Made by a program: the position numbers and the translations under genes. This document shows positions 12,692 to 48,347 of a stretch of 64,000 nucleotides of DNA, piece by piece. Below the pieces are notes generated by a model. The model was not told the DNA's origin. It worked only from the letters and a program-made list of their open reading frames with translations, and searched no databases. The DNA is from Nitrospirota bacterium (GTDB lineage Bacteria; Nitrospirota; UBA9217). The number at the start of each line of letters is the position of its first letter. Within the stretch, counting starts at the first letter, position 1. Location of the stretch: contig CAVVUN010000012.1 in assembly GCA_963751455.1 (NCBI GenBank), positions 512,001 through 576,000 on the forward strand, written 5' to 3'.

Positions 12692-12701
12692 AATCAAATC
12701 A

Positions 12702-12812
12702 TTGGACGCAGATAAACGCTGAGAGCTGACGCTCGCAGAAAACGCCGACTGCCTCTCTAAGAACCGCTTCCCCGATTTAATCTGCGTTCATCTGCGTAAA
12801 TCCGCGTCCCAA
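12702..12812. repeat. Intergenic REP-like inverted doublet (CGCAGAT.../...ATCTGCG family)
   Basis: GGACGCAGATAAACGCTGA...ATCTGCGTTCATCTGCGTAAATCCGCGTCC; related doublets at ~16093-16202, 28357-28480, 35185-35433, 40640-40732, 50906-51072 and 53214-53302. Confidence 0.65.
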
Positions 12813-12823
12813 CGGCTTTTGTC

Positions 12824-14818: not shown

Positions 14819-14969
14819 AATGAGTCTTGTCAAGCGGATACGGCAACGATGCCTGTGTCGTCGAGCGTCTATCGGCAACGTATTAAAGACGAACGACGTA
14901 ACACGTGACCGAAACGGGCTTCATTACCGATTCACCCCTTACGCCTCACACCCACTTCTTACGGGTTTC

Positions 14970-15944
14970 TTATTCCTTTGACCCCCTCGGATTCACTGCC
15001 ACATATACGATACTTTGAAGGAGACTGCCCATGCGCACGATGACAGCGGCGAGGATCGAGATGCCCATGATGACAGGGTAATCCCGGTCCTGAGCGGCCT
15101 GCCACGCCATTCTTCCCATGCCCGGCCAGTTGAAAACCTGCTCGACAATGACGGCGCCGCCCAGAATAAAGGGGATCTTGGACGCGACGATCTCGGTAAC
15201 CGGTATCACGAGGCCTTCCTTAAATGAATGCTTCCATACGGAGGCGCCCTTTGCACGGGCTGTGCGGATGTAGTCTTCGGCCATTACCCTGCCCATCTCG
15301 TCACGCAGAAAACGGATCACCTCGCTGATCGTGCCGTTCCCGATGCCCAGCACAAGGATCGGCAGCAGGGCATAAAGCCAGCCGAACCGGTTCGAGGATG
15401 TCGAGTAGCCGAGGGCTATTGGAAAAAGGCCGAGTTTATGCGTAAAGAAATAAATGACGATATAGCCGAGCCAGAAGACGGGTAAAGCGGAAATGATGTA
15501 GGAGAACATGGTAAGCGGCCAGGAAATTTTATCAGTGCCGCGAACGGCGGAATAAAGCGCGATCGGGATGGCGATCAACAGCGTGATGAACAGGGACCCG
15601 AGGGTGAGGGAGAGAGTATTCAGCCCTACTCGAACCACCTCCTTCAGCACCGGTAAGCCGGTCCGCATGGATGTGCCGAAATCGCCGCGCAGCATCCCGG
15701 TCAGCACTGAGAAATACTTGCCGTACCATGATGTGGGTACGCTAACGGCATCCCTGATGCCGGTTTGCGCCTCAAGCGTGGACACCCCGCCCTCGACCAG
15801 GGTGCTGAAAGGATCTCCTGGCGACAGATAGAGAATTATGAATACAACAAAGCTGACCCCGAGAAGCAGGAGCGCTGTCATCAGCAATTCCCTTGACAGT
15901 GCCAGGGCAATTGGACGGATAGCGGATAATTTCAGCGATGCCAT
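14970..15944 (-). CDS. ABC transporter permease (OppB/DppB-like)
   Basis: PGDP, GDFGTS, DYIRTARAKG, VEQVFNWPGMG, RDYPVIMG. Confidence 0.93.
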   Translation of the reverse strand: MASLKLSAIRPIALALSRELLMTALLLLGVSFVVFIILYLSPGDPFSTLVEGGVSTLEAQTGIRDAVSVPTSWYGKYFSVLTGMLRGDFGTSMRTGLPVLKEVVRVGLNTLSLTLGSLFITLLIAIPIALYSAVRGTDKISWPLTMFSYIISALPVFWLGYIVIYFFTHKLGLFPIALGYSTSSNRFGWLYALLPILVLGIGNGTISEVIRFLRDEMGRVMAEDYIRTARAKGASVWKHSFKEGLVIPVTEIVASKIPFILGGAVIVEQVFNWPGMGRMAWQAAQDRDYPVIMGISILAAVIVRMGSLLQSIVYVAVNPRGSKE

Positions 15945-16322
15945 GCGGAAGCTGGATATTTCATCGGTTGCCGAGCCATTGAGCGTTATCCCTTCTTTCT
16001 TAATATTTTAAAAAACCGGTGCCAATACCGTTAAAAACCTTTACTTCGCATTATCTTTAAATTTGAGTCAAGTTTTTGAGAAGCTAAAAAGCATTTACCG
16101 CGAAGGCGCGAGGAGCGCGAAGGAAACCATACGACAAAATCTTATTTCTGGTTTAAACCCGTTTCAATTCCTGCTTTCCTCGCGTCCTGCGCCTTCGCGG
16201 TTCCAAGGTATTTTTTTCATCGGTCTGAGGCCTTGCCTCGTTAAAAGTTGCACTAAAAACAAAACAGAAGACGCTGTCTCAGCGTACTTAGATCGATACA
16301 GATTTGTCATTAACTATTGGCC

Positions 16323-17933
16323 TTACTTCTGTTCTTTTTCCTCCATGAACCATTCATCCGCGTACGAGAAGAATTTATAGGGATGAATCGCCACGCGCCG
16401 TATCTTTTTGTGATAGGCCGCGTAATTCGTGAGCGTCCAGAGAAATGTGTAGGGGTTTTCATCTGCGAGAATCGAGTGGAGCTTGCGATTGATCGTGCGG
16501 CGTTTTTCATGGTCCAGGGTGAGTTTGCTCTCGTTGATCAGCCCGTCCACTTCCGGATTGGAATACCCTCCGAAGTTGTTCCTCCAGGGTCCGATCTCGC
16601 CTGAATGGAACAGCGAGGAGATGTCCGCTGAATCGTCAAAAACCCACGAGGCGAAAATGACATCGAAATCGTGCTCGAGGAAGACATCCTCCTTCCAGGA
16701 TTGCCACTCCTTGAACTCCACTTTGATGTCCACACCGATGTTTTTCAGGTAATTCTTAAAGGCGAGCACCACGCGTTTCACCGCCTCGCTTTCCTTTTCA
16801 ATGGGCACCTTGAGCGAGAGCTCCAGCTTTCTGCCCGCCTTCCGCATGAAGCCGTCAGGGCCGCGGCTGAAACCGGCTTCCTCGAGAAGTGCTATCGCCT
16901 TCTGAGGGTTAAAGGGCACCGGCTGTACATCGAGATTATATGCCCAGCTGCCAGGCGCAAAAGGCCCCGAGATGATCGTGCCCTGGCCGTTAAAGAACGA
17001 GTCGAGCATCTCCTGCCTGTTGACGGCGCAGGTAAACGCCTTCCGCACGCGCCTGTCTGCAAGAAACGGGTTCCGGGCATTATAGCCGAAGAAGGAGTAC
17101 GAAAGGGCATTATAGGGCTGGAGGACGAAACGCTTGTCGCCCTGGATCTCGGGGATATCCCGGGGATTCACAAGCACGATCATATCTATTGCGTTGAACA
17201 TCAACGCCTGGGTCATGATATTCTGATCCGCAAAGGGTTTGGCTACGAACTTATCGGGGTGCGGTCTACCCTTGAAATACGCCTCGTTTGCGGTGAGAAC
17301 AATCTCCCGTTCCGCCGTAATATTCTTCAGGATGAAAGGCCCGGTGCCGATCGGATGCTGTACGAAGCCGTCGTCCCGGGTAAGGTAAACCGGGTTGCTC
17401 GGGCCGTGCTTGGGTATCACTTTAAAGCTGAATTTCGCGAGCGCGTTCAGGATCGGCCGCTTCAGCGTAAACTTGACCGTGTAGTCATCGATCTTCTCCG
17501 TGGATTCGATAAACTCATAACGCACCTTGAGCGGCGTGATCGTTTTGGGATGCATCATGATCTTCCAGGTGAAGACCACGTCTTCTGCCGTAAACGGATG
17601 CGGTGCTTCGCCCTCGCGCTGATGCCAGGTCACGTCCTTGCGAAGGTAAAAAGTATAGGTGCGACTGTCAGGGGAACTCTCCCATCGCTCGGCGAGCTCC
17701 GGTACGATCTCCTGCTTTTCGTTGATCCCGACCAGACCGTTGAAAATAAGCTCCGAGAGCCTGAGCGAAATCATTTCATTGCTCGTGATCGGGTCCAGCG
17801 TCGCAGGACGGCCGTATTCGCCGTAGCTCACGGTGCCGCCGTCCGTTCTGCCGTCCTGCTTGCGGCCTGCCCACGTCTCGTTCGCTGCGAGCGTAACTGC
17901 TGTCAGCATCACTGCCATCAAGATCCGTTGCAT
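16323..17933 (-). CDS. ABC transporter substrate-binding protein, family 5
   Basis: Signal peptide; TLDP, PELAERWE, FTAEDVVFT, PIGTGPF, NFGGYSNPEVD. Confidence 0.93.
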   Translation of the reverse strand: MQRILMAVMLTAVTLAANETWAGRKQDGRTDGGTVSYGEYGRPATLDPITSNEMISLRLSELIFNGLVGINEKQEIVPELAERWESSPDSRTYTFYLRKDVTWHQREGEAPHPFTAEDVVFTWKIMMHPKTITPLKVRYEFIESTEKIDDYTVKFTLKRPILNALAKFSFKVIPKHGPSNPVYLTRDDGFVQHPIGTGPFILKNITAEREIVLTANEAYFKGRPHPDKFVAKPFADQNIMTQALMFNAIDMIVLVNPRDIPEIQGDKRFVLQPYNALSYSFFGYNARNPFLADRRVRKAFTCAVNRQEMLDSFFNGQGTIISGPFAPGSWAYNLDVQPVPFNPQKAIALLEEAGFSRGPDGFMRKAGRKLELSLKVPIEKESEAVKRVVLAFKNYLKNIGVDIKVEFKEWQSWKEDVFLEHDFDVIFASWVFDDSADISSLFHSGEIGPWRNNFGGYSNPEVDGLINESKLTLDHEKRRTINRKLHSILADENPYTFLWTLTNYAAYHKKIRRVAIHPYKFFSYADEWFMEEKEQK

Positions 17934-18055
17934 GAATAACCTCCTCTTTAAGTACGGAATTCACCCTGCACTCGCGCTGCCGCACTGATAAACGCTGGGT
18001 GCAGGCGGAGTGCGGAGTGAGTGTTAAATCCGAACTCCGCAATCCGAAATTATGT

Positions 18056-19543
18056 TCAATTGATCTTCACGTCTCCCGCGCTCTTATGCTCCATTGCATA
18101 AATTCCCTGAAGCGCCTCCTGGATCTGGCGCACCTCGGGGAACTGCCTGCTCATTTCGAAATATATCTCGAGCGCTTCTGAAAACTTCTTCGTCTTTCCG
18201 TATGCCTCGGCAAGGCCGACAAGCATGGCCGTATCGTTGGACTCGATCTTGTTCTTGTTGCCCTTGTCCCGCCCGGCCTCCAGATATGAAAGCGCCCGGC
18301 CATATTCTTTTCTGGACAGGTAATAATCCCCCAGCGCTATATTCAACGGAGAGAATCTTTTTCCCTGCCCCGCCTCGGCGGACGCCTCCGCTTGTTTCGC
18401 GAGCTTCCCGCAATTTATCCGGATGCTCCCGCATGACAACATTATCTCCGCGAGCACATCGACGTCTTGCGACCCCTTCGAAAGCTCGTCCCAGGCTCTA
18501 AGCGATTCTGTTTTACGGCCTTTCCTGTAGTCATTGGCCGCCTGGCGAACCCTGGCCCTGGCCCGGTACCCGGCAGGAACTGCTGATGCGCCGAGGAATA
18601 CGTTCAGCGCTTTTGTGGACAGGTCGATTTTACCGTCCAAAGCATATGCCTCTCCAAGGTAGAAATTCGCAGTTTCCCGGAGTTTGCCTTCTCCCGCGGC
18701 TTTTTCCAGTGCCGCTATCCCCGCCTTCAGGTAAAGCGTCGACAGGTGACGGAGCAGCGAAAGATCGTAAAAATTAATTGTCTTCGATTTCCCGGCCGAT
18801 TCCCTGGTAGGAAAAACCGGCAAGATCGGCTTCTGCGGCCGCGCCGAGTGCTTTGTCGATCATCCCGGCACCGGAATAAACGGAAATCAGGCTGCTGATC
18901 TGGCGCATCGACAAAGTTTTTCCCGCTTTTTTCACCGCACCAAAGCTCTCTTCCGCGAGCGCCACAGGATTCTTGTCCATGATAGCCTGACCTGGTATAT
19001 GCGGCTGCGAGTGCGGACTTGATCTCCGGTTCGGCAAGGTCCAGACCGGCCCAGACATCCTCTGCCGCTTGTCGTTTGTTTTGAAGCGCGTAGCAGAGTC
19101 CCTTATCTACAGCCGCTATCGCTTTGTGAAGAGGGGCCACATCGTCCTCCCGGACGAATATATCGAGATAGCGTATGGCCTGATCGAACCTGCCGTGCTT
19201 CCAGCAGCGTTTCGGCGAGGTACAGATTTGCAAAGCGGCTCCTGTTTTTGCCGTGCCCCGCGGCAATTTTCCTTAAATACTCCAGGTGGACGGCAAGCGA
19301 TTGACGGTATAGTCTTTCGTGAAGATCGGCGTTCCTGAGATAGCTCATGCCGAGCGTCAGCTGGGCCGCTGCCTGCCGGGCCGGGTCGAGTGATGGCAGG
19401 GATGTTCGAAGCATCGATGCGGCCTCGGCAAAATGCCGCTTTTCGTACAGCTTCATGGCGCGGGTCGCGGCGTCCTCACCAGCAGGCGCCTGCGCAGCGG
19501 ACAAGAGGATAAGGAAGGAAATCAGAAATCTCATAGCTTTCAT
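18056..19543 (-). CDS. Exported TPR-repeat protein (~490 aa if joined), broken by frameshifts
   Basis: Signal peptide in ORF 19103..19543; helical TPR-like segments continue in overlapping ORFs 18727..19266, 18774..19058 and 18056..18823. Confidence 0.65.
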
Positions 19544-19586
19544 GGCTTTTCCTTTGTTACAAGCATGTACTTCCCGGTCTTTAAGC

Positions 19587-20845
19587 TCACTCCTTCAGCC
19601 TCATTACATATATCTGGTCCCACTGGTTGACCTGTGCACGGAACGCGATGGCTGCCGTCGCGCGAACAAGTCACGTCGTGATTCATCCTGGTTTCCGTCT
19701 TAACGGGGATATTTCTCTTGCCCGCAATATCGGCAATATAAATCGGATTATACTCATGCCGGTCATTCTTCACATATGCGATCCTCGCGCTGTCAGGCAT
19801 CCATGCAGGTCCGACCTCGATGTCCGGGACCACATCGGTCGCGACAATCTTCCCGGCGAGCGTCAGCCCCTCGCTCGGGTCTGAACCGTCCGATGCAATT
19901 ACGACGATGGACCATACCTTTGGGTCTGCCTCCGCGTTATAGTTCGAGTAGAAAGCGATGTTTTTGCCGTCAGGAGACCAGACCGGTCGAAGATCATCAG
20001 GCGCCCACGTGGTCAGTCTCTTCATCGACTGCACCGGGTTCATGACGTCCCCGACGAGCAGGATGTCATGGTTTTCATTGCTGCCCGCCGTCATCACGAT
20101 TTTTTTCCCGTCAGGCGACCACCGGGGATGAAGATACGGCTTCCCGCCCGCGGGTCAAACGGGTCAGCGCGCGAGACGGGAGATCGAGGATATAGATATC
20201 GCCATGGCCTGTACGACCGGATACAAAGGCAACCCGGTCGGCCGTATGCGACCAGTCGGGCTGACCGTCCTTTTCCCGGTGATCGGTAAGCCGGACCGCC
20301 GCCTTCCCGCCCAGTTCCTGAAGATACAGGTCATAATTGCCTTCCCCGCCATTGCTCATGAATATGAACCGGTTGCTGCCGGGAGACCACGTGATGCCGG
20401 CGTTATAGCTGGTCTCGTCGTTGAAGCCCGGAAGAAAAAACTTCGTTTCGTTTCCATCGTCGGATGAACCGATGGACACAGTCTGCATTTCACTTCCGTC
20501 CCGGTAAACAATGCGGATCTCTTTTTTATCGCTGATGCTCCGTTCAAAGGCGACGAGCGCCCCTGGTGGAGACCATTGCGGGTTCGAGTCGTTTCGCCCG
20601 GGTTCTATTTTGGTAAGCGGAATGACGGACACAGGTTCTATTGCCTGTGTCGCTCTCTCTTCCTCTTTTTTTCCGGTATTCTCTCCCGAAGTTGAAAGTA
20701 AATCGAGTACCGGAACGGGAGGCCCGGCCGGCGCCGGCGCCGACGTGTTTGCCGGCAGGGACCTCAATTCCTCGGCGGGGCATTCAAGCCCGATGCATAC
20801 GATTACGAGAGCATAGGCCAGCGCCGCGTTCTTACTCTGCTTCAA
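19587..20845 (-). CDS. TolB-like PD40 beta-propeller protein, broken by frameshifts
   Basis: NPQWSP, ITWSPG, QPDWSH, RPVWSPDGKNIAFYSN, PAWMPD repeats; my translation of the last frame ends ...QVNQWDQIYVMRLKE-TGA at 19587. Confidence 0.8.
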
Positions 20846-20936
20846 ACTGGAATCCTCCCCTTGCCTCTCACCATCTCTTTCCCCGCTCCGAATGTGTTCG
20901 TCTCATCGGGAGTACAGAGAGGAATAAGGCGCATCC

Positions 20937-23501
20937 TTACAGGTCCTTGATCTGGTCCCAGTACTTGCGTGCTGATTCACGGGCTTCAACGAATGGTGCG
21001 TTCGCCTCCAGGTTCTTAGGGAAAAAATCGAAATATTCCCTCCACGCGAGATTGGCGCTGTTCAAAATCGAACTCTTTCTGGTGATGAGGTAGAGCTTGT
21101 GATATGCGAGCGCGGTATAATAATATGTGTCATGGATCGCCTCGTCGTATTGGACATTCGGGAAGAACCGGGTGTTCTGTTTCGCGGTCTGGAGGTTCTG
21201 AATCGCCCGGGCGAAGTTCTGGGCCGCGGAGTCCTTGTCGCTCTGCACCAGTTGATTGCCCTTTTCGTAGTAAGCGTGACCAAGGTTGGTGAAAGCAACC
21301 GCGTACTGTTTATAGACAAGCTGCTTGTTCTCGGGCAGCGACAGCACGTTCTCAAACTCCTGCGCGGCAGAGTCATAGTCATTGAGGTCGTCGAGATAAA
21401 TACGGGCCAGCCTGTGGTGGGCTTCTGCGTAGTCGGGGTGCCCCTTCTCCGCACTCTTGTATGCCTGCACGGCCGCGCCGGTATTCCCATCCTGGAGCGC
21501 CCGCTCGCCGAGCTTGAGGTAGTTCTTATAAAGAAGTATTTTCGCTCCGCCGGTGCGGTTTTCGACCGTCTTATCGAACTCCACGACTTCTTCCCAGTCG
21601 CGGTAGTCCCCGCCGTACGACACTTTTACCGTATGGAATCCCAGGTTCACCAGTTGCCCTTCGAGGATCGGCGTCTTCCCGATCTTATCTCCATCCAGGA
21701 ACACCCGGCAGATGATGGGTCCGATTCTATCTTAAACAATGCATTGTTGACGGCAGAGCACGAATTCTTTCGCGTCCTTATTTTTGTCGATCTTTACGTT
21801 TTGTATTACCTGCTGGTATCCGTGCCGGTAAAGAACGAGGTTGAAGTTTTTGCCGATGCGGACAGGCACCTCCGCTTTTCCATCCGCTGCCGTGCTGCCG
21901 CGCCACTCATCATTCACGTAAATATTCACGCCGGACAGCGGGGACAGATCCGGCGCCAACCCTCCCTTTGCCGAGAGAATGAAATAATTGCGGGCTGTTG
22001 CGTCATCTTCAAGGGAGAGTCGCCTGACCACACGGTCCCCGAGACTGATCTTTTCGCCCTTCTTAAGGTCCTCAACTTCCGTCCATGCCCCCGAGTCCTC
22101 TGATTTTTTGACTTTGAGTCTGCCCGACTCCCGGTACCCGGATATCTTGCCGCTCTCATCGCGTCGCGGAGCCATCAACACCAGTTCAGCGCCCCGGCTT
22201 ATCTTATAGCTCCGGCCGATGTTAACCCGGTATCGCTCCTCTTCGGACCCGATCACGGTGCCCTCGAAGGGAAAACGTTCAAGCACGCTGGAAGCTATTT
22301 CCTTCGCCGCCCTCGTAATATCCCCTTCACCCGGAGCCCGGGTGATCTGGCTCAGGATGAGCCTGCCTCCGGCCGCATAAAACTTGGTTTCGATCAACAG
22401 CCCCTTATCGTCTTTCGCCACGCTGCCGAGTATAATCATGTCCACGGTTCTGAACAGCGGAGTTTCGCGCCATCCCTTCACGATAATTATTTCTATACTC
22501 AGCTTCGCATGCTTGATCTCGGCCTGGAGAGTCTTCGTAGAAACCTCACGGAAGCAGGGATTTTTGAAAAGCTGGGCGGCAACCGAGGATTCCACCTTGC
22601 CGAGGACTTCTTTCATGTCCGCCTTCGGCGCGTTGCTGACGAACCGGTAGATGCCCGCTCGTATCGGCTTCGCGGTTGCCGGATAGAAATAGTGCTGGAC
22701 TGCCGCTTCCCCTTCAAGCACGACTGAGGTCTTCCAGACAGCGGGGACATGGCCGGGCGCTTCGAGCGTTATCTGTGCCTTCCTGCCGGGCTCGCCGTCA
22801 TACCTGTATATGAGAGCGCCCTTTGCGTCGGTCCTGCCGATCTGCTTGTTGTCCAGCCGCACGGACACACCCGCGATGCCGTTGGTCTGTCCATACTCCT
22901 CGGTAAGCGCGGCAACAACGATCGACACTTGTTTGGAAAGCGCTGCTGCAAGCCGCTGACCGGGTTCGACGTCCGCGGTCTTGCGCCATGGGGCGTAGCC
23001 CTGCTTCACAACGGTAAGCTCAAGACCGCCCTTCGGCGAATCCTTATAGTGATAAACAAATTCGCCCTGTGCATCGGTTTTTCCGGCTTCTTTACCTCCG
23101 GCCTTCACAACCGCTTCAGCCACCGGAGAGCCCTGGTCCGTTGCGACAATGGTAATATAGCGGAGGGCGGACAGCTCTGCATTTAAGGAATAGGTATCTA
23201 TGCTGCCCGACTTCGGCAGCTTCATCAGGAAAGTGCTTTTCCACGGTTTAATGCTGTACCCCGGCAGTTCCCGGGCAACCGTCACCTCGACGTCGGCGCC
23301 CGGCTTTTTCCTGATTATTTTCGTAAAGGCCCCGTTCGCGTCGGCGACACCCTCTTCTTTTCCGTCAACCAGGATCTTCGCCTCGGCCGCGGGCTTCCCG
23401 TCCATTCTGGCATTTACCCTGAGCTCAAGTTTTTCACCGCATCCGTACAGCAGCATCGACGCCGAAATTATAAAAACTAAACGTATAGCATGCTTTATCA
23501 T
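20937..23501 (-). CDS. Lipoprotein with PEGA/carboxypeptidase-regulatory-like beta repeats and C-terminal TPR; two compensating indels near 21705-21755
   Basis: Lipobox LYGC; repeated GxTDAxG beta domains; VFLDGDKIGKTP PEGA motif; TPR C-terminus (AFTNLGHAYYEKG); ATG 23501 behind GAGGAGG. Confidence 0.75.
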
Positions 23502-23582
23502 ACAATGCCTCCTCAAAGCGCTATAACAAAATAGAAGCGTATAATTAAATTAGAATAAAAAAAAACCAGACGCACTGCATCT

Positions 23583-24032
23583 TTACATCGTCGGCGGCTG
23601 AATATTGACCTCGCCGGGGTTCACGATTTTGTCTTCGTCAGACTTCGCCCCCTCGATGCTTTTTCGCCTACCCTCGGGTATTTTTTTGAGTTTAAAATCG
23701 ACTTTTTTGCCGCCATATTTCGTCACCTCAAGGGTTTGTGTATCGGTCATGTAGCCGATCCTGCTTGCTTCCACCTTATAGGTGCCCGGAATAATATAAT
23801 CCTTGGCCGATTCGTATTTTCCATCGACTTGGACCGTCACTGCCTGCGAGGCCCTCTCGAGGCTTGTCGTAATATTGATCATGTTGACCACAGTGCCCTG
23901 GGGGCTTTCCTTCGCGGGCGGGATCGGTTGCAGATTCGCATCCAGCAGTTGAACCGTTCCGTATATTTTCGGCGCGCATGCTTCCAGTGCAAACATCAGA
24001 ACAAACAGCAACAGAATTTTTTCTCGCTTCAT
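23583..24032 (-). CDS. Small lipoprotein with carboxypeptidase-regulatory-like domain; first gene behind riboswitch 1
   Basis: MKREKILLLFVLMFALEAC lipobox; PGTYKVEASRIGY; RBS GGGAGG; the longer ORF start at 24143 lies inside the riboswitch and is not used. Confidence 0.75.
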   Translation of the reverse strand: MKREKILLLFVLMFALEACAPKIYGTVQLLDANLQPIPPAKESPQGTVVNMINITTSLERASQAVTVQVDGKYESAKDYIIPGTYKVEASRIGYMTDTQTLEVTKYGGKKVDFKLKKIPEGRRKSIEGAKSDEDKIVNPGEVNIQPPTM

Positions 24033-24089: not shown

Positions 24090-24133
24090 AAACAAAAAGC
24101 CGCCAAAAAGAAACAATCTGTTCTTTGGCGGCT
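24090..24133 (-). terminator. Intrinsic terminator (expression platform of riboswitch 1)
   Basis: AGCCGCCAAAG...TTTTGGCGGCT followed by TTTTGTTT; the 5' arm is the aptamer 3' strand. Confidence 0.85.
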
Positions 24134-24249
24134 CGACTAGCATATAAACAGTAGAATCTCTTTCTGGTCGGATGAGATATCGGGTTACTGTTTTATTTAG
24201 CTTCGTGGCTCTGCGCCCCGCGGTTTCCCGCGGTTTGCTCTGAGCAAAG
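24123..24249 (-). ncRNA. GEMM-I cyclic-dinucleotide riboswitch, A20 variant (predicted 3',3'-cGAMP), copy 1
   Basis: CTTTG-CTCAG-A-GCAAACCGCGG-GAAA-CCGCGGGGCGC-AGA-GCCACGAAGCTAAA...ATGCTAGTCGAGCCGC-CAAAG: P1, P2 with GAAA tetraloop, P3 with receptor; A at 24239 in the G20 position. Confidence 0.88.
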
Positions 24250-24274: not shown

Positions 24275-24303
24275 ACTTTATCATGTCATGCAGGGGTTGT
24301 CAA
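24275..24303 (-). promoter_or_regulatory. Sigma70-type promoter of the lipoprotein/TolB/ABC operon
   Basis: TTGACA-N17-TAAAGT with extended -10 TG, about 25 nt upstream of the aptamer. Confidence 0.8.
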
Positions 24304-24588: not shown

Positions 24589-24804
24589 CTAGTGTAGTGT
24601 CTCACAAACGACTGGTGTTATCATAGCGCGGCAGTAGGCCGCAGCCAAACTTGTAGGGTAAGGCTTTAGCCTTGCTGAAAGCGCCGGGACAGCAGCAACC
24701 CTAAAGGGTCGCCCTACAAATTCATCAGCAAATATTTATGCGAAGATAAGTTTTCGATGAGAAATCATCATATAACACCGTCCATTTAAGAAACACTACA
24801 CTAG
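24589..24804. mobile_element. MITE-like element containing a GTAG-REP doublet
   Basis: Terminal inverted repeats CTAGTGTAGTGTCTCACAAA / TTTAAGAAACACTACACTAG (17/20); internal TGTAGGGTAAGGCTTTAGCCTTGC...GCAACCCTAAAGGGTCGCCCTACA; the right end coincides with the TAG stop of the gltG-like gene. Confidence 0.7.
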
Positions 24805-26210
24805 CCTGCGGGCAGGAAATCAATCGGGTACAGGATGGTCGTCCTGGGAACCTTCGCCTTCGGTCCGAAGTTGAACTTCTTGACACGCTCCACAATCTGC
24901 GCCACCAGCTGCGGCGAGGCGAGATCGTTCGACTGCACCGTACATGCCGAGACTTCGCCACCCGACTCGATGATGATGCGCAGTATAATCTTGCCGCGCA
25001 GGGTCGGCTTCTTGCGCAGTTCTGCATTGTAAATCCGGTAGAGCGTAGCCTTGTATCTATCGAAGACGATCTGTATCTCTTCGTCGGTTCGGGCCGGCCC
25101 GGGTCCGGAACCGACAGGCTTCGCCTTTTCCGCCAGCCCCGCAACCGTACTTTCTACCCTTGTAAAACCCACACCCCCGATCCGATTTCCATTGCCGCTC
25201 CCGACATTACGGCTCACGCCGGCATTGCTGATACCGCCGCTCGAGCCTGCCGTTGATTGCATGGCGAGTATCGATCGACCTGCACGAGCCTGACCTGCCG
25301 CCACTGTCGGCTCTTTACTCAGCCGCGCCTCGGCGCCGAGTCGCGCAGCGGGAGTTTCTTCCATCAGATCTTTAAACGTCTCTTTGAAGGCCAGGACCCC
25401 CGTGCTTTCCGCTTTTTTACGAGCAGCCTGTGTTTCTGCGGGTGTTGCTTTCGGTTTGTCTTCCTTAGCAGCTTTTTCCTGATCTTTCTTTTCTTCTTTT
25501 CGTTCAGGCGCCGGCTCAGGCTTGGGCGGCTCATTTCTCAGCATGGAGACCAGACGTTCCGGAATTACAGGCACGGCCGGGCGCACCGGCGCGGGCAGCT
25601 TCACCAGGGGAATCACAGCGCCGAAAACGAGATAGAACGATAAAACGACAATCAGAGCCTTGTGGAAGCGTTCTTCGCTCGCAGCCTCAAGCATCGGGCG
25701 ATCAGGGACCGGTGAAACCTCCCGCTCTATGACGTACTCTTCCTGGCGCCGTTCTTCACGGGCGTATACATCACGCAGTTCTTCGCGGAAGATGTTCAGT
25801 TCTGCTCCGCAAAGATTGATCTCCTCCCGGAGAGAAGCCTGTTTTTCCAGGACCCCGCTTATCGTCCGCTCAAAGCCGGCAATCCGTCTCCGGGTCCGTT
25901 CGACGTGTCCGGGGACATTCTGAGGCTCCGAGACTCCTGCCCAGAAGAGTTCCTCGGCTTTCAGTTCCCCCAGTTTGTCGAGCGCAGTGCAGACGTCCCG
26001 CAATGCATCGAACCGCTGTCTCTCGGCGGAAAAAGTCTCCAGCTCCACCTCTACAGCGCGCAACTCTTCTTCGAGCACCGCGCCTATTTGCCGGGCATGC
26101 TCGATCTGTGCGTTGAGGCCCGCCAATTCTTCTGCTAAGATGTCCTCTTCCAACAGAAATGTATCCATGGCAGCCCCACTAGGTTTTTGCGGCCTTCTGA
26201 ATGACGGCAA
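24801..26210 (-). CDS. GltG/PglI-like TonB/TolA-type protein (AgmX/PglI C-terminal domain) with N-terminal coiled coil
   Basis: Coiled coil, single TM, Pro/Lys/Glu linker, ARKKAESTGVLAF, Gly-rich linker, C-terminal RTDEEIQIVFDRYKATLYRIYNAELRKKPTLRGKI...YPIDFLP. Confidence 0.8.
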   Translation of the reverse strand: MPSFRRPQKPSGAAMDTFLLEEDILAEELAGLNAQIEHARQIGAVLEEELRAVEVELETFSAERQRFDALRDVCTALDKLGELKAEELFWAGVSEPQNVPGHVERTRRRIAGFERTISGVLEKQASLREEINLCGAELNIFREELRDVYAREERRQEEYVIEREVSPVPDRPMLEAASEERFHKALIVVLSFYLVFGAVIPLVKLPAPVRPAVPVIPERLVSMLRNEPPKPEPAPERKEEKKDQEKAAKEDKPKATPAETQAARKKAESTGVLAFKETFKDLMEETPAARLGAEARLSKEPTVAAGQARAGRSILAMQSTAGSSGGISNAGVSRNVGSGNGNRIGGVGFTRVESTVAGLAEKAKPVGSGPGPARTDEEIQIVFDRYKATLYRIYNAELRKKPTLRGKIILRIIIESGGEVSACTVQSNDLASPQLVAQIVERVKKFNFGPKAKVPRTTILYPIDFLPAG

Positions 26211-26673
26211 GGGAAATCCTTCCGTATCCGGAGGCCGTGCAGGTTGACATTATTTTTTTAAGCACTTTGAACGGAATCGTTTTATCGGCAAGGAGCGTGA
26301 CTTCCCTGCTTTCGGCATCCGTCCTCGTGCCTGTCCCCATACTATTGCGTTCAAGTTGTGCCAGTCGGTTTTGTACTTCATAAACCAGCCCGATGCCGTC
26401 GTCGAGAAGCTGAGCGGTTGCAATCACAGCTTCGCCCTGGACCTGTACTGTTTCGGGGCTAACCACGATCGTCAGTGTTTCCCTCGGCCTGGTCTCGACG
26501 ATCGAATCGGGCAGCGCAATCTTCGCGTCCGGAAGATCTCCGTTGAATGAGTGGAAAAGCAGAAAGAACACCAGAACCGTAAGAACATCCATCATCGGTA
26601 TGAGGTTCAGGCCGAGACCGGTCAGCTTCGTGTTGTTGCGTTCCATCCGTTTTATACGTCTGCTGTCTCTCAT
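26179..26673 (-). CDS. ExbD/TolR-family protein (AglQ/AglS-like)
   Basis: LNLIPMMDVLTVLVFFLL with the conserved TM Asp; ADKTIPFKVLKKIMSTC. Confidence 0.9.
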   Translation of the reverse strand: MRDSRRIKRMERNNTKLTGLGLNLIPMMDVLTVLVFFLLFHSFNGDLPDAKIALPDSIVETRPRETLTIVVSPETVQVQGEAVIATAQLLDDGIGLVYEVQNRLAQLERNSMGTGTRTDAESREVTLLADKTIPFKVLKKIMSTCTASGYGRISLAVIQKAAKT

Positions 26674-27176
26674 GGCGCGTCTCCTATGGATATCTTCGGA
26701 AAGAGCGCTATTTTTTCGACCTCTGCGCTCCCTTCCGCCCTCACGACAGCTTCACGAACCGCATCCATGACCTGAATCAGGTTGTCGTATTCGATCTTCG
26801 GCTCCATCAAAACCGTCGCGTCTTCCTTCTCCGGATATTGGGCTTTGATGCGAACAAGCGCTTTGGTCAGCAGCTCGATATCGTATTTGCCGTCTTTCTT
26901 CGGAATAGAAGCTTCCACGGACGATCCGTTCGCAATCTGCAGCCCTGAGTCGCGAACGATCACCTCGATCGAGAAGTTCGGCTGGTTCACGCCGGCTTGG
27001 CCGGCGGCCGTCGGAACACTCAATTCCATGATCGTAATCCGCATAAAGACTGCAGTGATGAGCAGAAAGACCACCAGAACGGTAAGAATATCCATCATGG
27101 GTGTCAGGTTCAGAACGTGCATGATATCCGTATCGAATGATACTTCCTTTCCCCTTTTATGATATCGTCTGGTCAT
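26670..27176 (-). CDS. ExbD/TolR-family protein (AglQ/AglS-like)
   Basis: LNLTPMMDILTVLVVFLL; YDNLIQVMDAVR...LFPKISIG C-terminus. Confidence 0.9.
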   Translation of the reverse strand: MTRRYHKRGKEVSFDTDIMHVLNLTPMMDILTVLVVFLLITAVFMRITIMELSVPTAAGQAGVNQPNFSIEVIVRDSGLQIANGSSVEASIPKKDGKYDIELLTKALVRIKAQYPEKEDATVLMEPKIEYDNLIQVMDAVREAVVRAEGSAEVEKIALFPKISIGDAP

Positions 27177-27855
27177 GGACAGCTCCTGTCAAAGCCGCAT
27201 CTGTTAAAATGGGAGATCTTTCGAATTGGCGCTTGGTAAAATTGGAGATGGTATTGAGCGCTTTTACTGATGCCATCTCCAGGCTGTTCACGATCTTCCC
27301 CGTGGTCGTGGTGAGCTTGGCATGGAGCAGGAGAAGCGGGATCGCCGACATAAGACCGAAGGCAGTGCAGTTCATGGCCTCCGAAATGCTGGCCGCAAGC
27401 AGGGCGGCCTTCTCGGCGGGGCCCGCGGTGGCGACCGCAGTGAAGGCCTGGATAAGACCCATGATGGTGCCGAGCAGTCCGAACAGCGTGGCGATATTCG
27501 AGAGCAGCGCCAGGTACTGCGTGCGCTTTTCCAATTGAGGAATTATCTCCATCAGGCTCTCTTCCATGGCGATTTCTATATCTTCCCGCCGCCTGACCGC
27601 GCCCTGGCGCGCCAGTCCCATCTCCAGCATTTGCGCCATACTGGATTTGTCCTTGTTGGTAATTTCCCGGGCTTTCTCGAACTCTCCCTTGGCCAGCGCC
27701 GGATACAGCAACTTCCAGGTTTTTTGATTTGCGTCCCGAACGCGCTTTAAATGAACCCAGCGTTCAAACGCGATGGCCAGACCGACCGAAAGCACGAGTA
27801 GAATAGGGTACATGAAGAACCCACCCATCTGGAAAAACCTCACTATTGTATGCAT
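27157..27855 (-). CDS. MotA/TolQ/ExbB proton channel protein (AglR-like)
   Basis: GGFFMYPI, ATLFGLLGTIMGLIQAF, ISEAMNCTAFGL. Confidence 0.92.
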   Translation of the reverse strand: MHTIVRFFQMGGFFMYPILLVLSVGLAIAFERWVHLKRVRDANQKTWKLLYPALAKGEFEKAREITNKDKSSMAQMLEMGLARQGAVRRREDIEIAMEESLMEIIPQLEKRTQYLALLSNIATLFGLLGTIMGLIQAFTAVATAGPAEKAALLAASISEAMNCTAFGLMSAIPLLLLHAKLTTTTGKIVNSLEMASVKALNTISNFTKRQFERSPILTDAALTGAVHDQTIS

Positions 27856-27896
27856 CTTTGTTTCCTCCTTTTTTGTTTATGAGTACGAATTATTTC

Positions 27897-28056
27897 GTAA
27901 CTACTCAGGTGCGTATTCCCATGTTGCCGCCCTGCTGGATTTGAATCTTTTTTTGATGTCATTCCGGCTTGTCCGGAATCGTATAAAGCAAACAATTGAA
28001 AACAACGACGATTCCCGACAAGCGGGAATGACACCTAACAGGTAGTGAGCAGTTAC
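27897..28056. mobile_element. MITE-like element carrying a GTCATTCC palindrome doublet
   Basis: TIR GTAACTACTCA / TGAGCAGTTAC; flanks ATTATTTC and ATCATTTC (8-bp duplication, 1 mismatch). Confidence 0.7.
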
Positions 28057-28057
28057 A

Positions 28058-28333
28058 TCATTTCTTGGTGCTGATTTCAAAAAAATCCAATTGCCGCATA
28101 AACACATCTCGATCCACTGGCATGGCATTTTCGGTTAACATCATGCTCAAACTTGTCTCCACACCGATTTCAGAGCTTTTCCAGGGTACAATATACAGGG
28201 CTTTCGGGGCTTCATCGTTACCGACGATTGACATGCCCGAAAGTTCTTTGGCTTCGTGGCCCTTGTCCCCGGCCATGGCCGCGCCAACCGGCGCCAGAAG
28301 CACAAGCACCCAAAGCAATAGATTTCGATACAT
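28058..28333 (-). CDS. Small exported protein in the GltF position of the glt-like cluster
   Basis: MYRNLLLWVLVLLAPVGAAMA signal peptide; LSGMSIVGNDEAPKALYIVPWK; RBS AAAGGAG; lies between the TPR lipoprotein and tolQ. Confidence 0.7.
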   Translation of the reverse strand: MYRNLLLWVLVLLAPVGAAMAGDKGHEAKELSGMSIVGNDEAPKALYIVPWKSSEIGVETSLSMMLTENAMPVDRDVFMRQLDFFEISTKK

Positions 28334-28511
28334 ATTCTCTCCTTTCTTCAAACCTTTTGCCACGGATGAACACCGATAAAAATCTCTCTGCCGCAAATTA
28401 GCGCGAATTGACGCGAATAAAAGCATGATAAAGTTTTTTATTAAATCTCATTCGCGATCATTAGCGTTCATTCGCGGCTAACCGATCTCTTTTCTCCTGC
28501 GTTCTCTGTGA

Positions 28512-29312
28512 CTAATTTTTTCCCATTCGCATGCGCAGCTCGGCAATCCAGATTTTGACCTGCGCGTCCGCGGGCATCCCCTCGCTGTAAATCTCGAATT
28601 GTTTGAGCGCGCATTCCGGGTCATTGAGATACAGATCACAGAGGATCCCGAGATTTCTGCGGACGGGAAGATAGTCAGGAAAAACCGCAAGCGCCTTCTC
28701 ATAGATCTCCCGGGCCTCCTTAAAACGGCCCCCCTTGCGAAGCAGCAATCCATACTCATTACTGGCCACCGGGTGATTAGGAACCATTCCAAGAGCGGTT
28801 TTGAGGTGCTGCTCCGCCGGCTCGAACTTGCCGGTCCGCATGTAGGCCACCGCAATATTGATATAAGGCGCCGTGACTCCCGGTGAGCGCTCGATCACCT
28901 TTGCCAGAAGTTCGATGGCCTTGTCATTTTTTCCGTCGTTCATCATGGCGACAGCGCGCTCGAATTCTTCGCGCGACTCCGCATCCATGCTCGGGTTTTC
29001 CCTGATGACGAACCCTTGTCGCCCATCCTGGAGTTGTGCCACGGATGGCCCTTGACCTGTAAGGGGCTGGTTGGGGCTGGTGACGCACCCGGAAAAAAGC
29101 GCGAGTACGAACCCAAGACCAAAGACAAAAGCAGTTTTCGCGCAAAGACGCCAAGTCGCAAAGAAAGACAAAACATTTTTGATTTTAAAGACAAGCTCAA
29201 GATTTAATCTTTTCTTTGCGCCTTTGCGGCTCTCGTGCCCGCGTTTTCGAGCACTCGATGCGAGAGCAGGGTATTGCGCGAGACCGCCTTTGATTTTGAC
29301 TTCATGTTTCAT
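28512..29312 (-). CDS. TPR lipoprotein (GltE/AglT-like) with a palindromic element in the signal n-region
   Basis: Lipobox FSGC; TPRs; RNLGILCDLYLND...QVKIWIAEL C-terminus. Confidence 0.8.
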   Translation of the reverse strand: MKHEVKIKGGLAQYPALASSARKRGHESRKGAKKRLNLELVFKIKNVLSFFATWRLCAKTAFVFGLGFVLALFSGCVTSPNQPLTGQGPSVAQLQDGRQGFVIRENPSMDAESREEFERAVAMMNDGKNDKAIELLAKVIERSPGVTAPYINIAVAYMRTGKFEPAEQHLKTALGMVPNHPVASNEYGLLLRKGGRFKEAREIYEKALAVFPDYLPVRRNLGILCDLYLNDPECALKQFEIYSEGMPADAQVKIWIAELRMRMGKN

Positions 29313-29352
29313 CGATCTGAGGCCTCCTTCTTAAACCTATTCGACCGCCGCA

Positions 29353-32300
29353 TCAGGCCGAGGGCTTTGGTTGCCGCTGTCGTCCGCTCCCAGCGCCGGC
29401 TCTTTTGCCTTTGCCGCCTTTCTTGGTCTCAACAGGCTTGGCGGTCTGCGACGGTTCCGCTACGCGCGCGGCTTCTTTCGTCTCGACAGGCTTCACAGCC
29501 TCCTGCGGTTCTTCGGCCGGCGCTGCTTCTTTGGCCGCGGCAGGTTTCTCAGTCTGAGCCGGCTCCGTCGCCTGCACCGCTTCTGTGGTCGCGGGCGGTT
29601 CCGGACGGTCGATGGCGAACAAGTATGAATCCAGCGAAGAGATAACGGCACTCTCCTCTTCCCGCTTGGCGTAACGCGCGGGTACGAACACGGCCAGCTT
29701 CTCCAGGCTCTTGTCGATCCACTCGTTGTAGATGCCGATGGTCATCAGTTCAAGATTCTTTTCGTGCATTTTGATGGCCTTATCCTCAAAGGGATAGGCC
29801 TGCTCTTCGATGGCTAACTCGTACTGCTCCATCTCCAGCGGCGCCAAACCCTTCGGACGTTCGGATTCCAGCAGAGCTTTGCTGAAGTGGGCATTGATCT
29901 CGGCCAGATAGAAAGTGGCCGCTGCCGTAACCTCGCCGACTTCATAGTCCAGAAGTTTGGAAAATTCCTGCGTGGCCGTCTTCATCAGCTGGCGCTTCTT
30001 GCGCAAATTGACATCAAAGGGTTTGACCAGCCTGACTTCGGCGAAACTGGTGAATTTCGGTTGAGTCAGCACCACAGCGGCCTTGCCGCCAAAATAGCGG
30101 GTCCGGTCGGTACGCTCGCGTCCCGCTGCGGCATCAAGTGCGACAACCTCCCGGAGTTCCTTCAAGTAACCTTTCTGGTCATCTTTCTCCTTCAGAATCT
30201 CGCCAATTTTGCTGCGGGTTTCGAGGTTGAGCTCCAGCGGCTGCGGGAAGTAATCCGCGTAGCGCCGATACACGACCAACGTGCGAGCCGGGTTCCCTGC
30301 TTTCTGATGCAAATCCGCCGCGATCAGCAGTGCCTCCCTCCTTGCCTCATTATCCCGGGACTCTCTTTCTATGCGTTCATATTCATCGGCTGCGAGGGAG
30401 AGCTGCCCATCCTCGCGGTAGATGTAGGCGATCTTCTTGGTCACCTCGGTCTGCAGTGCGTGTCCGGGGAACAGGTCCCGGAAGCCCTTCAGCACAGCCG
30501 CCGCCATCTTCCAGTCCTTAAGCTGCATCAGGGCGGCCGCCGCATCGTACTCCGCGGTCACCCTGATTTTGGAAGTCGGGGCCATACGCCCGACGCGGAG
30601 AAAATGCTGCGTGGCTGCCCGATAATCCGCGAGGGCATTCGCCTGTTCACCTTGCTTGTATATCGCTGACGCAAAATTATCGATCAGGGCATCGCGACTT
30701 TTGTCCCCGGCAGGGAGCAGCGCCAGCACATTCGCGTAAGCGGTTTCAGCTTCGCTGTAGCGCAGCAGCTCGTAGGTCGAGTGGCCAACCACCAGCCAGG
30801 CTGCGCGCTTGACATCCTTATCGGCGCCGGGGAAAACCTTGTTGAGTTTGTGCGCGGTAGCCAGCGCCTGCTCATAATCCCGCAAATCGTACAGATCATC
30901 CGCTGCCGCCCCCAGAACAATCGCCGCCTTCTCATGCTCAGGATAGATGTCCGCAAACTTCAGCGAGCTGCGTACGACCTCCCGTCTCACCTGATCTTTT
31001 GCCGCGGGCGCAGCGCCCACGAGGTGTTGGCGATAGGCGTAAATTGCCGCGTAGCCGGCCTGCGGGGACTTTTCGTGGCGCGGGTATTCATAGGCGATTT
31101 TCTCGTATTCCATTGCCGCAAGATCGAACGAGCGGTTTTCCAGAAACAGATCCGCCAACAGATAATGAATAGCCGGCGACTCCGGGTCCATCGGGAAAGA
31201 AGTGAGGAACTCGCGATACCAATGCAGCGCTTCATCGAAGTTTGTCTTTTTTTCCTTGATCTGCTGCGGGCTCTGGTAAAGCGCGTGATAATGCTTTGCC
31301 AGATCAGTGAGGTTCGTTTTGAGCCAGGCCAGCACTTCCGGACGGGCGCTCGGTTCGAAATGCTGCCAGTATTCGGCCTTGAGTCCGTACTTTTCGGCAA
31401 ATTGCTTTTTTGCGTCAATAACGAGGCTGGGGAACGCCCCGGCAAGATCGATTTCGATGACCCGCATGGCGAATTGAGGGGATACTTTGTGAAACAGATT
31501 GCGGCTGACAAAGGCGTTGTAGGCTGCCGCGGCGTCGCTATAGCGGCGTTTGTCGAAGTAAAATTCCCCGAGGTTGCTGTAGACGCTGTCCTCGTAACTG
31601 CGCTTGCCGTGGCGGTTGAAGTACTCGACCACGGAGTCGGCGCCGCCGAGGTTGGAAAAACTCAAACTGATGATCCGGAAGGTGTCATCAATTCGCTTGC
31701 GTTCCGGCTCATCCGCGGTCTGAGAAAAGTCGTAGCCCACCGACACCTTGTAATCCAGCAGAGCAATGAATCGATGCAGAGCCTCGTCATAAAGTTCCTG
31801 CTTGTAAAAGGTCCAGCCCAGCTTGTAGAGCGCGAGCTGAAAATAGGAAGAAGAGACGCCGATGGTCACGATGCTGGCGTAGGCCTCCTCGGCATCCAGG
31901 TAATGCCTGCGGGTGAAGAAATATTCAGCGCGCCGGAACTGCACTTCATCGATATAACGGGACCGTGGGTAGACGCGCACCAACCGGTTCATGACTTCCA
32001 TGGCCTCCTCGACCCGGCCCAGTTCCTCATAGGCGCGGGACATCTGATACAGCACCTGATCGTTTCGCTCGTACGTTGGATAATCGTTCAGCAGTTTCTT
32101 GTAGAGGTCAACGGCTTCAAGGGCGCCGACCCGCTCCAGGTCATGAGCACCTTCGGCAAGTCCGTCCGCAGCCGAGGCCGGCCCGGGCGCCCAGCCCTGA
32201 GCCGCCCTTTTCTCAAAATCGGCCTGCGATTCTCCCAGCACCGGGCCCTGCGCCGGTGCAGGAACAGAGGAGCGCGTGGGTTGCGCCGTAAGCTTCGGAG

Positions 32301-32745
32301 AGGGCAAGGCGGCGGCCCGCCGCTCTGCTGCGGTATCGCCGGAAAGAAGGCCATATTCCCTTTCGACCTTCAGATCTGCCAGGCGGCGAATAGCCTCCGG
32401 CGACAGGGCCGCGTCCGGCTTTTCTTCCAGAAACCGCCGGTAACCCTCCATGGCTTTTTCGAGTCCGCCTTCGATCTTCTCGTCCTTGATTTCGATCTGC
32501 ATGTTACGCAACTTGGCAATCGTATCCTTGCCGCCGCCCGTTTGACAGGCGCTCAGGAGCAGCGGCAGCGCGAGCACGATGATTTGGTAAAAAGTCGAAA
32601 ATCGCCGATGGACCGTCATTCCGGCTTGTCCGGAATCGTTTCTAATTAGCGCGTTATACGGCAATTCGATTCCCGACAAGCGGGAATGACGACTTTTTAC
32701 GAGTTTATCAAGTACGCTCCATCGAAGCCGATTGGTTGTCTTCAT
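29353..32745 (-). CDS. Large TPR lipoprotein (GltD/AgmU-like)
   Basis: 1130 aa; lipobox LSAC; many TPRs (EVQFRRAEYFF, ALYKLGWTFYKQ); EEQAYPFEDKAIKMHEKN; low-complexity P/A/E/K tail. Confidence 0.8.
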   Translation of the reverse strand: MKTTNRLRWSVLDKLVKSRHSRLSGIELPYNALIRNDSGQAGMTVHRRFSTFYQIIVLALPLLLSACQTGGGKDTIAKLRNMQIEIKDEKIEGGLEKAMEGYRRFLEEKPDAALSPEAIRRLADLKVEREYGLLSGDTAAERRAAALPSPKLTAQPTRSSVPAPAQGPVLGESQADFEKRAAQGWAPGPASAADGLAEGAHDLERVGALEAVDLYKKLLNDYPTYERNDQVLYQMSRAYEELGRVEEAMEVMNRLVRVYPRSRYIDEVQFRRAEYFFTRRHYLDAEEAYASIVTIGVSSSYFQLALYKLGWTFYKQELYDEALHRFIALLDYKVSVGYDFSQTADEPERKRIDDTFRIISLSFSNLGGADSVVEYFNRHGKRSYEDSVYSNLGEFYFDKRRYSDAAAAYNAFVSRNLFHKVSPQFAMRVIEIDLAGAFPSLVIDAKKQFAEKYGLKAEYWQHFEPSARPEVLAWLKTNLTDLAKHYHALYQSPQQIKEKKTNFDEALHWYREFLTSFPMDPESPAIHYLLADLFLENRSFDLAAMEYEKIAYEYPRHEKSPQAGYAAIYAYRQHLVGAAPAAKDQVRREVVRSSLKFADIYPEHEKAAIVLGAAADDLYDLRDYEQALATAHKLNKVFPGADKDVKRAAWLVVGHSTYELLRYSEAETAYANVLALLPAGDKSRDALIDNFASAIYKQGEQANALADYRAATQHFLRVGRMAPTSKIRVTAEYDAAAALMQLKDWKMAAAVLKGFRDLFPGHALQTEVTKKIAYIYREDGQLSLAADEYERIERESRDNEARREALLIAADLHQKAGNPARTLVVYRRYADYFPQPLELNLETRSKIGEILKEKDDQKGYLKELREVVALDAAAGRERTDRTRYFGGKAAVVLTQPKFTSFAEVRLVKPFDVNLRKKRQLMKTATQEFSKLLDYEVGEVTAAATFYLAEINAHFSKALLESERPKGLAPLEMEQYELAIEEQAYPFEDKAIKMHEKNLELMTIGIYNEWIDKSLEKLAVFVPARYAKREEESAVISSLDSYLFAIDRPEPPATTEAVQATEPAQTEKPAAAKEAAPAEEPQEAVKPVETKEAARVAEPSQTAKPVETKKGGKGKRAGAGSGRQRQPKPSA
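32578..32709. mobile_element. 132-bp MITE inserted in frame in the signal peptide of the GltD-like gene
   Basis: TIR GATGATTTGGTAAAAAGTC / GACTTTTTACGAGTTTATC around a GTCATTCCGGCTTGTCCGGAATC...GATTCCCGACAAGCGGGAATGAC doublet; same termini as 57313-57445. Confidence 0.8.
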
Positions 32746-34631: not shown

Positions 34632-34634
34632 ACG

Positions 34635-48313: not shown

Positions 48314-48347
48314 AAATAAAAAAGCCGCCAAAAGATCCTTTGGCGGC
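48314..48347 (-). terminator. Intrinsic terminator of riboswitch 2
   Basis: GCCGCCAAAG-GAT-CTTTTGGCGGC followed by TTTTTTATTT. Confidence 0.85.

Follow-up and report, generated by a model that had tools for sequence, protein, structure and literature searches.

The closest described relatives of the elements reported here are the GEMM-Ib riboswitches of Geobacter, such as those of G. metallireducens pilM and G. sulfurreducens Gs1761/pgcA, which combine the RF01051 fold with A20, A47 and C92. The part that position 20 plays in the specificity of GEMM-I aptamers is described in PMC6140456, where the G20A variant of Vc2 is reported to bind both ligands, c-di-GMP and 3',3'-cGAMP. The pilM element, as presented in PMC9262584, is an ON-switch in which aptamer and terminator are mutually exclusive, and the account of the Geobacter cGAMP regulon in PMC6456294 includes lipoprotein and polysaccharide genes as well as tandem switches. 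On the enzyme side the reference is GacA (GSU1658/Gmet_1914, PDB 6D9M), and we use the term canonical Hypr for proteins with Ser or Thr at the GacA Ser348 position together with a GGDEF motif. The mutational sections of Hallberg et al. (2019; PMC6456294) report that GacA D374E is inactive, as are the Asp-to-Ser mutants of four GGEEF enzymes, and their statements on natural sequences hold that Ser/Thr enzymes are exclusively GGDE[F/Y] and that Ser/GGEEF is not found in nature; in their Goldilocks model only GGDEF enzymes lie on the path to cGAMP synthesis. In the literature searched we found no description of Hypr-type cGAMP signalling in Nitrospirota.

The DNA analysed here (the window) is a 64,000-nt stretch of contig CAVVUN010000012.1 from the genome of an uncultured Nitrospirota host (G000, the study genome). 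Comparisons were made with the 54 genomes of the host's family (f1) and with a phylum scan of 301 Nitrospirota genomes, leaving 247 outside the family; the phylum counts come from motif patterns run on draft genomes, and genomes within one family are not independent. Three GEMM-I aptamers, all on the minus strand, match RF01051 in cmscan above the gathering score of 35 bits:

24124..24249, minus strand: RS1 aptamer, RF01051 match (A20 at 24239, A47 at 24212, C92 at 24128), with a long insertion in the second hairpin
48339..48437, minus strand: RS2 aptamer, the downstream member of a tandem, RF01051 match (A20 at 48427, A47 at 48400, C92 at 48343)
48585..48725, minus strand: RS3 aptamer, the upstream member of the tandem, RF01051 match (A20 at 48715, A47 at 48688, C92 at 48589)

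Their scores are, in this order, 55.5, 55.5 and 51.6 bits (E 4e-8 to 3.5e-7), and RF01051 gave no match in any of 14 control genomes. The Rfam alignment, the check that the initial annotation had itself proposed, bears out its reading of the specificity position: model position 11, the consensus G before GCAAA, is A in all three copies, at 24239, 48427 and 48715. This position we take to be G20 in Vc2 numbering. The A47- and C92-equivalent bases are kept in all three, again as had been claimed, giving the base signature of GEMM-Ib (A20 with A47 and C92). RS1, RS2 and RS3 are near-duplicates of each other and hence do not count as three independent observations. In an alignment of 33 A20 aptamers (three from the window and 30 from relatives), 94.6% of 726 cells are paired and 11 of 22 pairs are altered on both sides, with compensatory changes in all four helices. 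None of 500 shuffles scored as high on four of five measures and slid controls were also lower; as the rows are related and the structure was taken from the Rfam model, this supports the fold and is not a test of significance. The covarying P1, P2 and P3 helices, and the location of each copy in a 5' leader with an expression platform, are those of RF01051 members, and judged by sequence and alignment RS1-RS3 are genuine additions to the GEMM-Ib type. They share with the Geobacter examples the RF01051 fold and the A20/A47/C92 set, and differ in their Nitrospirota host, in a G at position 48 where the consensus has A (24211, 48399 and 48687, and most A20 aptamers of the family), and in an insertion of 42-58 bases in the second hairpin of RS1 and RS3.

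The 5' strand of P1 can also pair with A20 and the five bases after it, forming a six-pair hairpin that is a predicted ligand-free state and may be incidental, since the altered P1 of relatives breaks one pair:

24234-24248, 48422-48436 and 48710-48724, minus strand: predicted P1/A20 fold-back hairpin

Each aptamer overlaps an intrinsic terminator at its 3' end, and candidate promoters lie upstream:

24090..24133, minus strand: RS1 intrinsic terminator, hairpin of -17.8 kcal/mol followed by a U run
48555..48595, minus strand: RS3 terminator, overlapping the 3' end of the aptamer
48315..48349, minus strand: RS2 terminator, overlapping the 3' end of the aptamer
24275..24303, minus strand: sigma-70-like promoter candidate for RS1 (10/12 matches, 17-base spacer, extended -10)
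48749..48777, minus strand: sigma-70-like promoter candidate for RS3
48471..48498, minus strand: weaker promoter candidate ahead of RS2 (16-base spacer)
48506..48528, minus strand: ribosome-binding-like site and, after it, a two-codon ORF, in the RS3-RS2 interval, by sequence

The RS1 terminator was missed by a simple scanner because its loop is longer than 8 bases. In each copy the 5' arm of the terminator is the aptamer's own 3' strand (the base of P3, C92 and the 3' strand of P1), and folding of the three copies favours the terminator by 10.7 to 16.7 kcal/mol over a fold with its 3' arm kept unpaired. The shared strand and these energetics imply that the ligand-bound aptamer and the terminator are mutually exclusive, as in the Geobacter ON-switches, and the same overlap and U run are present in 45 of the 58 A20 aptamers from relatives that could be parsed (four others were unparsed). 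Ligand binding would thus block termination and switch on two sets of cell-surface genes. Tandem copies are another feature shared with Geobacter. Here the RS3-RS2 pair may be a duplicated module and not a designed two-lock switch, since RS1 and RS3 have promoter and insertion sequence in common and a ribosome-binding-like site follows the RS3 terminator; this site and its two-codon ORF may be what is left of a former gene start.

The genes that lie downstream of the switches on the minus strand are as follows:

23583..24032, minus strand: 149-aa lipoprotein-like protein, the first gene under RS1, whose start at 24032 agrees with relatives
11681..23516, minus strand: PEGA/carboxypeptidase-regulatory-like, TPR, PD40 and peptide-ABC-transporter genes, likely the rest of the RS1 operon (inferred co-transcription)
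47687..48238, minus strand: Pal-family OmpA lipoprotein, the first gene under RS3/RS2 (TIGR02802 above cut-off)
40793..47536, minus strand: 2247-aa DUF11/isopeptide-domain surface protein
35440..40548, minus strand: 1702-aa OmpA-domain protein
24801..35159, minus strand: cluster of three TPR genes, a TolQ/MotA-like gene, two ExbD/TolR genes and an AgmX/PglI C-terminal-domain gene

The lipoprotein label of the 149-aa protein comes from our reading of a signal peptide and a cysteine. RS1 would control the lipoprotein/PEGA/TPR/ABC operon, in which many genes between 11681 and 21731 (minus strand) are split across reading frames, as assembly indels or operon decay could explain, and the RS3-RS2 pair would control pal, the DUF11 adhesin and the Tol/Agl-Glt-like cluster. 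The TPR-TolQ-ExbD-AgmX cluster resembles gliding-type Agl-Glt genes, with the AgmX/PglI C-terminal domain as the only Agl-Glt-related model above cut-off within 24801..35159; the equivalog cut-offs for GltG, GltJ and GltE were not reached there, GltG and GltJ scoring far below. These lipoprotein/ABC, DUF11 adhesin and Tol/Agl-Glt-like targets differ from those of the Geobacter switches, and control of cell-surface genes is common to both. In Bdellovibrio, cGAMP is reported to raise the expression of gliding genes (PMC9140294), and the likeness to the Bd0367 system is that A20 switches here head the TPR-TolQ-ExbD-AgmX cluster; by comparison, the link here would be a direct riboswitch and gliding would be a prediction from gene content. 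If this holds, cGAMP signalling in Nitrospirota would be tied to adhesin and Tol/Agl-Glt-like genes.

The same arrangement recurs in relatives. Among 60 A20 loci from the host's family, 29 lie ahead of the RS1 lipoprotein, four ahead of the TPR cluster and one ahead of the DUF11 gene, the aptamer directly heading the TPR cluster in those four relatives, with the run traced through to AgmX in G014, and lying directly upstream of the DUF11 homologue in G195. That DUF11 homologue is also broken into pieces. Further A20 loci of the family lie ahead of genes for Big_2 surface proteins and for multihaem cytochromes, and one of these cytochromes matches OmcS (E 1e-93). The initial annotation had contrasted envelope and adhesin targets with the cytochrome genes usually cited, and this contrast stands for the study genome, in which none of six GEMM-I matches precedes a cytochrome gene and no OmcS-like gene was found. 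As a wider statement it does not hold: A20 aptamers of relatives precede OmcS-like cytochromes, and in Geobacter lipoprotein and polysaccharide genes are already known members of the cGAMP regulon, so that the envelope targets here are a difference of degree. In the study genome we also counted 61 open frames, located on contig C12 and elsewhere, that have at least three CxxCH motifs (among them frames with 34, 32 and 21), none preceded by a detected GEMM-I aptamer.

RS1-RS3 probably sense cGAMP, and 3',3'-cGAMP would accordingly be named as their ligand in the mechanism that we propose. It is unlikely, in our judgement, that they are instead bispecific or c-di-GMP-preferring ON-switches, in which a protonated A20 reads guanine and the surface operons follow chiefly the many diguanylate cyclases of the genome. 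In favour of this reading, adhesins are classic c-di-GMP targets, and at least 41 of the 50 GGDEF matches in the study genome have the c-di-GMP-type Asp. In the binding data of PMC6140456 protonated A20 binds c-di-GMP, and one A20 aptamer, Cbe 1-2, prefers it (30 vs 463 nM). Three observations on the host's family speak against this reading. The RS1 lipoprotein is present in 37 of the 54 family genomes, and its leader carries A20 in 36 of these (35 by pattern and one by eye), a degenerate aptamer in one and G20 in none; A20 is fixed at this locus in the family. The study genome also keeps G20 aptamers on other genes, three of its six GEMM-I matches being the A20 copies of the window and three being G20 copies (one of them at C12:152282) that lie ahead of genes for a PAS/GAF/HD-GYP, an NmrA and a CBS protein and would serve a separate c-di-GMP regulon. 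Finally, Ser-type cyclases and an RxxQ HD-GYP protein, described below, are conserved in the family. Of four RS1-lipoprotein homologues outside the family, one, in G126, has a G20 aptamer, which favours the c-di-GMP reading, and three have no aptamer. The OmcS-like genes of the family point the same way, in that a single aptamer subfamily ahead of them varies between A20 and G20 from genome to genome, which would be a natural specificity toggle (loci L318:342-1592, L299, L319, L341 and L379, L383, L387, L391, L393, L398, L399). A further locus, L401 in G129, has an RS1-type leader that lacks the 5' half of the aptamer and keeps the terminator.

The phylum scan bears on the same choice. A loose A20 pattern proved noisy and was replaced by a strict one of fixed length, which matches 45 of the 54 family genomes and 37 of the 247 others; when the 37 outside matches were judged by eye for pairing, 26 were good, one was doubtful and 10 were unpaired. 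With the unpaired and doubtful matches set aside, a well-paired A20 aptamer occurs outside the family in 25 of the 89 genomes that have canonical Hypr and in one of the 158 that lack it, which argues against c-di-GMP as the ligand; no well-paired match to the strict pattern was seen in the remaining 64 of those 89 genomes. The Ser/GGDEF pattern itself is found in 89 of the 247 outside genomes and in none of the 54 of the family. A20 and Hypr travel together in genomes outside the family; within the family, where A20 is most frequent, no canonical Hypr was found. By these motif counts the phylum scan places putative Hypr-type cGAMP signalling in much of the Nitrospirota.

What would make cGAMP in the study genome is a separate question. 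The search for a Hypr GGDEF protein, which the initial annotation had named as a check, gave a divided answer: none of the 50 GGDEF matches is a canonical Hypr enzyme with Ser/Thr and GGDEF, and two are Ser-bearing members of the GGDEF family, P0001 (Ser/GGEEF) and P0002 (Ser/GGDDF). At the Hypr position 41 matches have Asp, two Ser and one Asn, and the six that the pattern did not parse include none with Ser or Thr when read by eye. The annotation's broader claim that this organism uses cGAMP gains from three separate sequence signatures, P0001, P0002 and the RxxQ HD-GYP protein, and is weakened by the missing canonical Hypr and by the preference of some A20 aptamers for c-di-GMP. In the proposed mechanism cGAMP would be made by P0002, a protein of the GSU1937 type, and probably by P0001, which is specific to the family and would stand where canonical Hypr is missing. 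Another GGDEF protein of the study genome, at G000:C15:824707-825834 (L012), is a membrane protein with a GGEEF motif that carries Asn at the position which reads the base; G004 and G014 contain similar Asn-type domains, and Asn is also seen in some of the HAMP-GGDDF paralogues. More than 10 GGDEF genes, some of them frameshifted, lie densely on one strand at G000:C12:365000-413000.

P0002 (G000:C9:341150-342553) has transmembrane segments, a HAMP domain, Ser and GGDDF, and neither an EAL nor an HD-GYP domain, which is the architecture and motif of GSU1937; the motif also lies in a similar place (Gly364 in P0002, Gly372 in GSU1937). The experiments described in PMC8835794 show that deletion of GSU1937 lowers a cGAMP reporter and that its GGDDF domain makes cGAMP in one fusion, and full-length GSU1937 is reported there to be inactive in E. 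coli. The Ser of P0002 is kept in 118 of the 120 homologues listed, among which there is no Geobacter-named protein, and the likeness to GSU1937 is one of architecture and motif.

P0001 (G000:C15:613967-615124) is a soluble GAF-GGDEF protein of 385 residues with Ser255, Tyr211 and GGEEF. Aligned with the GacA structure chain, Tyr211 corresponds to Tyr304, Asn246 to Asn339, Ser255 to Ser348 and Glu283 to Asp374, and P0001 thereby has the Ser348 equivalent and the non-Arg cross-dimer residue (Tyr211) of Hypr enzymes. It departs from them at the third motif position, where canonical Hypr has Asp: Ser with GGEEF is found in 120 of the 120 homologues listed, in which the active site is near-invariant. 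Its AlphaFold model has a mean pLDDT of 79.9, and a fold search against GacA (rmsd 2.2 over 158 columns) confirms the GGDEF fold and gives no side-chain distances. With GacA it shares the Ser348, Tyr304 and Asn339 equivalents and the GGDEF fold, and with GacB of M. xanthus the GAF input domain; unlike both, it has GGEEF in place of GGDEF and an insertion of two residues that disrupts the inhibitory RxxD site, and it groups with an Asp/GGEEF paralogue and not with the Nitrospirota Hypr enzymes. The full-length family forms one cluster at 50% identity and the nine closest named homologues are from Nitrospirota; among the best 150 representatives, only two of 127 parsed motifs are Ser/GGEEF, both from the host's family. 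This conserved Ser/GGEEF protein is a natural counter-example to the statement that the combination is not found in nature, and the new element is a conserved natural Ser/GGEEF family whose distribution is complementary to that of canonical Hypr, the Ser/GGEEF pattern occurring in 53 of the 54 family genomes and in two of the 247 others. The latter two proteins (L235 in G276 and L236 in G239) differ from P0001 and lie on long branches in the tree, one having an FHA-like N-terminus by eye and the other a GAF domain, which suggests that the Ser and GGEEF combination arose more than once.

We consider it quite possible, if just short of probable, that P0001 is a separately evolved cGAMP synthase. 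The competing reading, which departs from this one in the source of cGAMP only, is that the HAMP-GGDDF enzyme P0002 is the sole source and that P0001 is catalytically dead, acting as a receptor that binds nucleotide, as a scaffold or as a partner subunit; we lean against it and still regard it as a real possibility. The mutants described in PMC6456294 speak for it, as no activity was seen for Ser/GGEEF versions of GacA, WspR and four further cyclases. A second source would also usually exist, with the Ser/GGDDF pattern in 45 of the 54 family genomes (and 23 of the 247 others), and the insertion in P0001 is common to the Asp/GGEEF paralogue, so that there is no obvious compensating change. Against a dead enzyme are the near-invariance of catalytic-type residues in the 120 listed homologues, the complementarity to canonical Hypr, the wider presence of the P0001 gene in the family than of the HAMP enzyme (53 vs 45 of 54), and eight family genomes that have A20 and lack the Ser/GGDDF pattern. 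Of these eight, G006, G010 and G019 have Asn at the Ser position, and G015 and G148 retain only a short N-terminal piece. G004 (95% complete) and G014 (97%), also among the eight, carry A20 aptamers and an RxxQ HD-GYP protein, and of their 22 and 23 GGDEF matches the P0001 orthologue is the sole one with Ser. An active P0001 would mean that cGAMP synthases have evolved more than once and that screens insisting on GGDEF overlook such enzymes; an inactive one would be a conserved nucleotide-binding protein.

The origin of P0001 can be followed in part. A sister paralogue with about 35-40% identity, Asp and GGEEF, and the same two-residue insertion is present in most relatives and was not found in the study genome, and trees, one of them a quick tree, join it to the P0001 clade with support of 89-99. 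The non-Arg cross-dimer residue is not specific to Hypr, since 16 of 18 of these paralogues already lack the Arg (His in 13, Tyr in three, Arg in two). Union of the GAF part with canonical Hypr is rejected (p-AU 0.003) and that of the GGDEF domain alone is not (p-AU 0.35 and 0.57); together with the segment around the Ser, which is 46% identical to Hypr and 39% to the paralogue, the latter result is compatible with convergence and with local recombination. We tentatively put forward, as a plausible course of events that we hold somewhat short of probable, that the family lost a secA-adjacent Hypr and that a Ser/GGEEF replacement from a duplicated GAF-GGEEF cyclase, off the Goldilocks pathway, feeds A20 switches for adhesin and gliding-type machinery. 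Canonical Hypr adjoins secA in 16 of 30 loci, and in the study genome secA is followed by other genes; P0001 adjoins clpB in 27 of 32 and trxB in 20 of 32 loci, neither of which was found near canonical Hypr or paralogue loci. The names secA, clpB and trxB are our reading of the sequences and not family-scan results.

Two simpler ideas about P0001 were tried and set aside. Replacement of Hypr by P0001 in place is rejected, as the neighbourhoods differ, and the two-residue insertion before the motif is unsupported as a Ser-specific compensation, as the Asp paralogue has it too.

A further potential source of cGAMP in the study genome is a CBASS locus:

G000:C6:270879-273012 (L173): CBASS pair of a patatin phospholipase and a DncV-like CD-NTase

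We regard it as highly improbable that the switches read cGAMP from this cyclase and so couple phage infection to envelope genes. The pair itself is the reason to raise the idea; the cyclase scores 86 bits with the NCBIfam cGAS model, below the cut-off of 150, and CBASS enzymes are patchy and infection-triggered, unlike the A20 locus conserved across the host's family.

Removal of cGAMP would fall to the HD-GYP protein at G000:C1:625099-626271, the only one of 19 HD matches in the study genome with the RxxQ form of the Rxx(Q/N) signature. In the preprint that proposes it (bioRxiv 10.1101/600031) this signature marks cGAMP phosphodiesterases, and three of the six screened Q/N candidates are reported there as cGAMP-selective. 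Orthologues occur in 18 of 24 relatives in the family, with Q in 16 of the 17 loci read and H in one (3 more were unread). The protein shares RxxQ, here conserved in the family, with PmxA and Bd2325, and differs from them in having no Cache or HAMP domain by Pfam and in reading HHxK, where other HD-GYPs read HHE.

Beyond the riboswitch operons, at 1285-8098 of the window (minus strand), Cas3, GSU0054-family and GSU0053-family genes and one further ORF form a cas operon that is presumably type I-G/I-U-like, and just past the right end of the window, at G000:C12:576112-576606, lies an HD-GYP gene with the canonical RxxR motif.
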